Shown here: positions 11,184 to 11,238 of the stretch, piece by piece
How the letters are laid out: every line of letters begins with the position of its first letter
How positions within the stretch are numbered: the first letter of the stretch is position 1
Source: a virus
Taxonomy: Duplodnaviria > Heunggongvirae > Uroviricota > Caudoviricetes
Length of the DNA stretch: 12,048 nt
Strand: one strand, 5' to 3'
IMG/VR virus record: IMGVR_UViG_2534682338_000009
Span: 1-12,048 of that record
The notes under the pieces: model-generated
Database searches by the model: none
Seen by the model: the letters and a program-made list of their open reading frames with translations, nothing else
What the model was told of the DNA's origin: nothing
Program-made: the position numbers and the translations under genes

Positions 11184-11238
11184 GACTTTGGATAATTGAC
11201 TTTGGATAATTGACTTTGAGTAGTATCTTTTGAGTATC
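11184..11238. repeat. Tandem direct repeats: GACTTTGGATAATT x2 plus partial GACTTTGAG, then TTGAGTA(G)TATC x2
   Basis: Counted directly: 11184-11197 and 11198-11211 are identical 14-mers, with a partial third copy at 11212-11220. Confidence 0.8.

Follow-up and report, generated by a model that had tools for sequence, protein, structure and literature searches.

A polymorphic 14-bp tandem repeat in a conserved non-coding control region of an enterobacterial serine-integrase prophage family

Genetic organization of the locus

The analyzed window (12,048 nucleotides; positions 1 to 12,048 of IMG/VR record IMGVR_UViG_2534682338_000009) represents the left part, encoded on the minus strand, of an AT-rich, siphovirus-like E. 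coli prophage of ~32 kb that has a serine integrase; its sequence is the same as that of GL871841.1 (L013). Besides the two terminase genes, Pfam and PHROGs searches distinguished minus-strand genes for a head-tail joining protein, a lambda-family portal protein and a protease/capsid fusion; a siphovirus tail module and lysis genes are located further downstream. Exact-protein look-ups placed the element in Escherichia chromosomes beside mdoGH-yceK-msyB, with the gene of a large serine recombinase coming first. An insertion sequence (start of transposase OrfA, window positions 1-165) truncates the protease/capsid gene, leaving 478 aa versus 618 aa in intact relatives, and the window copy of the prophage is therefore defective. 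Other copies contain broken terL or integrase genes. The protease/capsid gene also carries imperfect 21- and 42-bp tandem repeats (865-966), which encode an acidic, E/V-rich linker (EEVQ...).

No recognizable repressor, antiterminator or replication genes were found in the ~32-kb element (L001, L011 and L032), whose head, tail and lysis modules are complete. Relatives such as L052 and L095 have a 660-950-aa gene in the early region. Searches for DNA similarity among cultured phages, plasmids and complete E. coli genomes revealed none that carries the region, the entries H31-H34 being small remnants, and the literature on msyB-linked serine-recombinase prophages gave nothing relevant. The best cultured-phage match of TerL (39% identity), an odd 141-kb record, was set aside, as were the cf-PICIs, where packaging is of the HNH type and whose published descriptions are without this element.

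The interval 6315-10809 constitutes an accessory hotspot, encoding an OLD-family ATPase/TOPRIM protein (6315-8135, plus strand), a lipoprotein (phrog_1353), and membrane and secreted proteins. It differs in every lineage, and elsewhere it is occupied by GTPase/8xMP, PLD, EAL or T4 gp30.7-like genes, or by sets of small genes. The OLD-family gene and a 125-aa gene converge, and the space between their 3' ends contains a perfect heptamer microsatellite (TACTCAT, 9.3 copies; 8262-8326), whose copies range from fewer than two to nine among the near-identical loci L001-L013. The features discussed below are listed in Table 1.

Table 1. Position and strand of the main features of the window, with the basis of each assignment.
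Feature	Position	Strand	Basis or remark
terL, gpA-type	3500-5422	-	Pfam, PHROGs
terS, Nu1-like	5295-5864	-	Pfam, PHROGs
Region A: TAGGTACTCC, 20 nt, GAGTTTTCGCCGCGAA	5991-6036	-	conserved upstream of terS in about 20 lineages
55-aa ORF, first gene after region B	10930-11097	-	truncated form of the 80-87-aa protein of L014, L027 and L054
Region B, 470-bp conserved non-coding control region	11098-11571	-	alignment of 9 lineages; conservation above neutral
GC box B'', GAGTCGCCGCCC (= GGGCGGCGAC on the plus strand)	11132-11143	-	conservation ends here, with variable cargo beyond
GC box B', GAGTCGCCAC, continuing GCAGTG	11169-11178	-	most conserved motif beside the array
Perfect tandem repeat, 14-bp unit GACTTTGGATAATT, 2.5 copies	11184-11218	-	TRF, shuffles
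Phased array, four CAAA(A/G)(G/T) motifs, period 14	11184-11232	-	sequence, alignments; ancestral form has three motifs
TACTACT block, nearly invariant, head of the array	11219-11225	-	alignments
Hairpin, 10-bp arms GGGATAATAG / CTATTATCCC	11330-11371	-	RNAalifold, 4 pairs with compensatory changes
Four CATCTTTCCA sites, two inverted pairs	11410-11419, 11447-11456, 11524-11533, 11560-11569	+, -, +, -	sequence
Gene for the 158-aa all-helical protein, always preceding region B	11572-12048	-	homologue search

A conserved non-coding module

The gene for the 158-aa protein, for which fold and family searches gave no informative match, served to collect relatives of the locus. Through homologues of this protein eight further lineages were found, in Pseudocitrobacter, Enterobacter, Citrobacter, Salmonella and metagenomes, and in all eight a homologous non-coding region is situated after the 158-aa-type gene. 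The module has the same orientation and order in every lineage: the regulator-like gene, sites around a -10 element, a leader of ~300 nt, the array with its boxes, and the cargo. Region B always follows the ~158-aa gene and ends exactly where the variable accessory or defense genes begin.

Region B is composed of (i) four operator-like sites, with a TATAAT (11437-11442) bracketed by the second inverted pair, (ii) an AT-rich stretch, (iii) a hairpin, (iv) a GC-richer leader, (v) the array and (vi) the GC boxes. The site sequence co-varies with the type of ~158-aa protein (GTTTTTCCA in L020, CGCAAGAT in L050 and AACGAGAAC in L096), and this protein is the likely binder of the four CATCTTTCCA sites. 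The cross-lineage consensus of the array is TACTACT-YAAAGT-N7-8-CAAAGT-N5-7-GA(R)GTCGCCAC, followed by a C-rich tail, where alignability ends. The 66-bp segment between sites 2 and 3 (11457-11523) is inverted in the Salmonella relatives L020 and L025 in comparison with all others, the flanking sites being unchanged; the inverted segment sits about 60-100 nt after the gene, and both orientations were not seen within one lineage. This segment contains CGGTA(A/G)AATGCGG, which resembles the RfaH ops element.

The best sigma-70-like promoter of the region (TTTCCA-17-TATAAT, 10/12) is antisense, i.e., directed toward the 158-aa gene, and a sense promoter has a poor -35; no sigma-70-like promoter was detected on the sense strand within the array. 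Readings of the array by eye as a DnaA box or as a sigma-54, sigma-E, sigma-28 or sigma-32 promoter were rejected, none of them being conserved. The hairpin is the sole RNA structure supported by comparison; it is not followed by a U run, and there is no intrinsic terminator. In the array itself comparison revealed no RNA structure, and it folds no better than shuffled sequences (z +0.4). On the sense strand, the best 78-nt window of the leader has a C content of 0.32 and a G content of 0.15. An Rfam search of positions 10800-11700 returned only two chance-level matches (E about 0.8-1) and no known RNA family.

The 55-aa ORF that follows region B in the window is longer in other lineages, and the C-terminal half of the full-length 80-87-aa protein has a weak LexA_DNA_bind-like match (E 0.024, below the Pfam threshold). 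In L017, L057 and L058, the 5' part of its gene is deleted between two CGCCGCC repeats. Two islands of about 8.5 kb, noted at L018 3428-4400 and in L019, encode a large serine recombinase and a 155-aa homologue (p155) of the 158-aa protein and contain region B, with no terminase or capsid genes; such an island could be a remnant or a satellite-like element. Region B is followed there by unrelated genes, including one for a small resolvase. In L030, the genes after region B lie on the opposite strand and the module is still retained, and in L031, whose 158-aa protein is 77% identical, there is another leader 3' end and no recognizable array. The array and boxes travel with the module of the ~158-aa gene, not with the terminase.

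Structure and copy-number polymorphism of the repeat

TRF described the repeat with a period of 14, 2.5 copies, 100% matches and a score of 70, in agreement with direct reading of the sequence. At lag 14 the sequence matches itself over a run of 21 bases, versus a maximum of 10 at any lag of 8-30 in 100 dinucleotide shuffles of the window, which confirms the two copies and a partial one described by the original prediction. On the minus strand the repeat reads CAAAGTCAATTATC twice, then CAAAGTC. No further copies of the 14-mer GACTTTGGATAATT with up to two mismatches were found in the whole window, where GACTTTG occurs five times (1.4 expected), three of these within the repeat.

A second repeat, TTGAGTA(G)TATC in two copies, had been reported beside the first. 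It is present (TTGAGTAGTATC / TGAGTATC, 11216-11238), but is part of the same 14-bp register and not a separate family. The genes on either side are all encoded by the minus strand. The first C of the four motifs falls at 11232, 11218, 11204 and 11190 of the minus strand, giving one register for both repeats: ACT-CAAAAG-ATACTACT-CAAAGT-CAATTATC-CAAAGT-CAATTATC-CAAAGT-CTTTAT-GAGTCGCCAC, with 12 bp from the end of the array to the GAGTCGCCAC box. The repeats had also been placed immediately after the GGGCGGCGAC island (11132-11141); they begin 42 bp away from it, with the GAGTCGCCAC box in between.

Copy number was compared in 13 near-identical assemblies and contigs. The 2.5-copy form is present in the window/L013, L001/L011, L008, L012 and L026, while eight of the 13 (L002-L007, L009 and L010) have 1.5 copies, i.e., CAAAGTC AATTATC CAAAGTC. 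The element in GCA_018428605.1 is an intact relative carrying 2.5 copies. All 2.5-copy loci that reach region A have a common variant downstream of the terS-proximal box (the fetched sequence of L026 stops short of it) and thus represent one sub-lineage. Profile R1, built from the 1.5-copy form, matches the window as two overlapping pieces in which model positions 36-49 are used twice, indicating the duplication of one unit, and the extra copy is recent, since eight near-identical assemblies have one unit fewer. In these comparisons the third full unit is a strain-level slipped-strand duplication of one 14-bp unit, carried by one sub-lineage, and the homology for slippage is supplied by the older CAAAGTC half-sites 14 bp apart. 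As in VNTR-like slipped-strand polymorphisms, the tandem copies are perfect and arranged head to tail, near-identical sequences differ by exactly one whole unit, and the shorter allele has a 7-bp direct repeat on either side of the unit. Unlike hypervariable VNTR loci, including the heptamer at 8262-8326, the 14-bp repeat was seen in only two alleles, which are inherited by descent.

Conservation of the ancestral array

The repeat unit is polymorphic, and the structure in which it lies is old. The array register is the same in L014 and L030 and is partly kept in L015, L017, L018 and L020. Across lineages the identity of the array is 0.52-0.85, versus 0.35-0.58 at four-fold sites; for array and box together, the window clade compared with L014, L030, L015 and L018 gives 0.85, 0.82, 0.62 and 0.58, against 0.58, 0.37, 0.42 and 0.35, respectively, at the four-fold sites of the adjacent 158-aa gene. 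The repeated CAAAGT motif beside GAGTCGCCAC is kept down to 48-64% identity of the neighboring protein, and array and box persist in lineages where the neighboring gene is saturated at synonymous sites. A lack of conservation in related elements was to count against the original prediction; the conservation found, far above that of the four-fold sites, speaks in its favor. Because the identity exceeds that of the four-fold sites of the adjacent gene, the ancestral array and box are under purifying selection, and by this measure the selected ancestral structure is composed of TACTACT, CAAAG every 14 bp, GAGTCGCCAC 12 bp further on, and the second GC box. The spacing of CAAAGT across lineages is 13 to 16 bp, which argues against a rigid dimer site without proving a role at the RNA level.

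The GC boxes and the terminase-proximal element

The terminase genes have a conserved element of their own, region A, located 127 bp upstream of terS in the window and followed by an AT-rich tract and by (A)ATGAATA repeats (5871-5897). A single copy is present in each genome of about 20 lineages identified via TerL, with or without the 158-aa gene and region B, and the core of GAGTTTTCGCCGCGAA is a palindrome (TTCGC-C-GCGAA). The distance between region A and terS is 100-150 bp in the terminase clade of the window, and ~650-1,070 bp, with a reversed gene inserted, in the other clade and in L030. The box of region A follows the TerL clade, being CGCCGCGAA at TerL identities to the window of at least 74% and CG[GC]CCACGC at about 43%. 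From its position, terminase linkage and palindromic core, we infer that region A is a better cos candidate than the array. Homology among close relatives breaks directly after the region A box, and in L095 and L096, sought as longer relatives of L053, reversed cargo genes are located between region A and terS.

A distance of 5.3 kb separates the array from terS, on whose upstream side it lies; in all relatives this interval is taken up by variable cargo, 5-7 kb in length. Phages with 85-86% identical TerL (L046-L049) have no match to the array, and those with 83-84% identity (L050 and L051) have a different leader 3' end. The GAGTCGCC boxes of region B are conserved and related to the terS-proximal box, and every one of them is without its TTT. 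B' resembles, minus the TTT, the terS-proximal box of the second terminase clade, and is the same across both clades, unlike the terS-proximal box. With the element that lies near terS in L053 and L095, B' has CCACGCAGTG and a GAGT..CG frame in common. The B-type GAGTCGCCACGCAGTG and the GAGTTTTCGGCCACGCAGTG of the region A box of L053 and L095 are alike, and AATTATTCAAAGT is even found in the L053 element. To this terS-proximal element of L053, every region B sequence aligns better than shuffles do (z 3.2-5.7), and profile R1 also matches it (E about 1e-3 in 420 kb); none of the other region A elements reaches significance. The relationship between the boxes of regions A and B thus rests on one bridging sequence (L053) and a shared 10-mer, and L053 may be a recombinant between the two boxes. 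Co-variation of the two GC boxes genome by genome, promising in the window clade, L014 and L016, failed in L030 and L020.

The outer box, B'', is the point at which homology with L014 stops, and only L014 and the window clade have the exact GGGCGGCGAC. Its likeness to lambda (GGGCGGCGA-CTCG, 13/14 bases of the cohesive end region) is reached by 37 of 500 shuffles and is not significant, and alignments of region A or B to lambda cos, which were also tried, were not significant. The cos-like character attributed to this site thus has some basis in the relationship of B' to the box of the terS-proximal element, the probable cos. No viral contigs were found to end at either element (a proxy for cos ends), many of the exact 16-mer matches being chance ones within genes. 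The IHF consensus WATCAANNNNTTR has no match with up to one mismatch in 11098-11571, which argues against the proposed IHF element, and no excess in the whole window; near matches in L015, L018 and L030 (AATCAAAGTCTTC) are not conserved.

Comparison with known systems reflects this division between the two elements. Like lambda cos (cosQ-cosN-cosB, with gpNu1 R sites and IHF site I1), the locus combines a gpA-type terminase with a GC-rich box near repeats, 10/12 overhang bases are found at 11132-11141, and region A occupies the expected position and contains GCGAGTTTTCGC (lambda, GCGGGTTTTCGC). Unlike lambda cos, the array is distant from terS and absent beside near-identical terminases, the IHF consensus is missing, and the box is independent of the terminase clade; the array thus does not adjoin the terminase genes, is not present in all phages with the same terminase and does not change with terminase specificity. 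In P2-like phages, accessory and defense hotspots (old, tin) are located beside cos. Similarly, the OLD-family ATPase/TOPRIM gene adjoins the cos candidate and the interval between the two GC-box elements differs in every lineage, but here the head genes are lambda-like, the tail is of the siphovirus type, the integrase is a serine integrase, and the hotspot lies between two related GC-box elements.

Possible functions of the array

The array and GC boxes are probably neither a cos site nor a replication origin. The main alternative that we considered, and regard as unlikely, is that of a packaging element, with terminase small-subunit or bending-protein sites beside a nicking site, acting as a real cos, a termination-only cos or the cos of a related helper phage. 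It ranks first among the alternatives on account of the likeness between the GC box and the terS-proximal box. With a gpA-type terminase cohesive ends are expected, and the GC boxes within AT-rich DNA, the lambda-like bases of GGGCGGCGA-CTCG, the frame that B' shares with L053 and L095, and the R1 match on L053 all recall such a site. The array is closely preceded by an HNH-like gene and by that of the 158-aa protein; HNH genes adjoin cos in HK97-like phages. The L018/L019 islands, moreover, keep the module without a terminase. Against packaging stand the distance of 5.3 kb, with variable cargo, between the array and terS, the different element that occupies the cos position in about 20 lineages with a box changing with the terminase clade, the lack of TTT in all B boxes, the phages with 83-86% identical TerL and no array, and the lambda match, confined to the closest lineages. 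In addition, if the genome had another cleavable cos at 5 kb from the first, the cargo would be lost from packaged DNA. These observations are at odds with the terminase-binding element of the original prediction, and in the comparison with the cos regions of related phages that it had suggested, the boxes of L053 and L095 resembled B', the array was missing in L046-L049, and L050 and L051 had another leader end.

A less direct link with packaging is conceivable, in which the hotspot would be bracketed by a true cos and a selected, non-cleavable paralogue of it (the array and the TTT-less boxes), read by the packaging machinery or by a helper phage. We consider this quite improbable. If it were true, cassettes could be exchanged between the boxes, with L053 looking like such a B/A recombinant, and the mini-islands L018/L019 (integrase, ~155-aa gene and module) could be mobilized as satellites.

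The repeats had also been proposed as origin iterons; the initiator would then be the 158-aa protein or the HNH-like 201-aa protein. Since the element has no recognizable replication gene, an unrecognized initiator and origin would be needed if the phage replicates, and beyond the four inverted sites there are an AT-rich tract and a hairpin. Judged against iterons defined as at least three direct repeats of about 17-22 bp adjoining an AT-rich unwinding region and an initiator gene, the array has a unit of 14 bp and mostly 1.5 copies in relatives, its third copy is polymorphic, GC-rich DNA comes after it, and no initiator is recognizable. Sites for an initiator or a regulator are better represented by the four CATCTTTCCA copies, since these co-vary with the protein, and L031 retains a 77% identical 158-aa protein with no recognizable array; we regard an origin at this position as very improbable. 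More room, though still little, is left for an operator array bound by the small protein encoded downstream (80-87 aa in L014, L027 and L054; 55 aa in the window). Cox, Apl and Xis-like proteins bind direct repeats at regular spacing, and in five of nine type-1 lineages the array is followed by this gene or by what is left of it, the protein having the LexA_DNA_bind-like match mentioned above. That match is, however, below threshold, no promoter lies inside the array, and the array is equally conserved in lineages without the gene (L030, at 0.82; L015 and L018), so that we regard such an operator as rather improbable. Finally, the repeat might have no function and reflect neutral slippage in spacer DNA, as might be expected from the polymorphic extra unit, the variation from 2 to 9 copies of the heptamer microsatellite in the same element and the defective state of the prophage in this strain. 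This applies to the extra copy only, the array and box being far more conserved across lineages than neutral sites, and for the array as a whole the explanation has a poor prospect.

The reading that we prefer, tentatively and with a conviction falling a little short of balanced, is that the array and boxes are a cis element of a transcribed leader, gating or insulating transcription into the downstream cargo and late genes. Transcription from the operator-controlled promoter would proceed through the leader, at the end of which the unstructured array, with C above G, and the GC boxes would form a recognition element. In the form we favor, a Rho-loading (rut-like) tract would be followed by a GC-rich zone of pausing or termination, rut tracts being some 70-80 nt of unstructured, transcribed RNA in which C exceeds G; the fit would be just as good for a DNA-binding factor that reads the direct repeats in their phased arrangement. 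With one unit more, such a tract would be longer and not destroyed, which could explain why the extra unit is tolerated.

This leader reading is favored by the sharp end of homology at the GC box, the TATAAT between inverted sites that co-vary with the protein, and the independence from packaging (L046-L051; B' constant across clades; L018/L019 without a terminase). It also agrees with the unstructured array, the excess of C over G in the leader and the lack of a sense promoter inside the array. On the other hand, the sense -35 is poor and the better promoter points the other way; the excess of C over G is slight, and by this standard rut tracts could be read into many sequences. A leader of the downstream genes fails in L030, whose genes beyond region B are reversed, and only an insulator or terminator fits there. 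A pure transcription model also leaves the likeness of the GC box to the terS-proximal box unexplained.

The late operon of lambdoid phages runs from a regulator gene through the late promoter and its leader to a terminator, and then on to lysis genes, morons and cos; leaders may also contain Rho-dependent attenuators. The arrangement described here is similar, with a small regulator-like gene, a promoter with sites, a long leader with an unstructured, C-above-G end, accessory genes, a cos candidate and terS. It differs from the lambdoid late leader in that homology to Q, qut or nut is lacking, there is no intrinsic terminator, and the hairpin is without a U run.

Significance for the prophage family

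Taken alone, the repeat is a minor polymorphism, and it is the context that lends it a certain value. An undescribed and strongly conserved control region of an enterobacterial serine-integrase prophage family ends here, and the repeat also marks one border of a hotspot where lineages swap defense genes (for OLD nuclease, GTPases, PLD and others). Judging by its conservation, the array with its GC boxes is a genuine cis element of this undescribed family, of modest interest. How these elements switch on their late genes, and how the hotspot is insulated or exchanged, would become apparent from the identity of whatever recognizes the array and its boxes.
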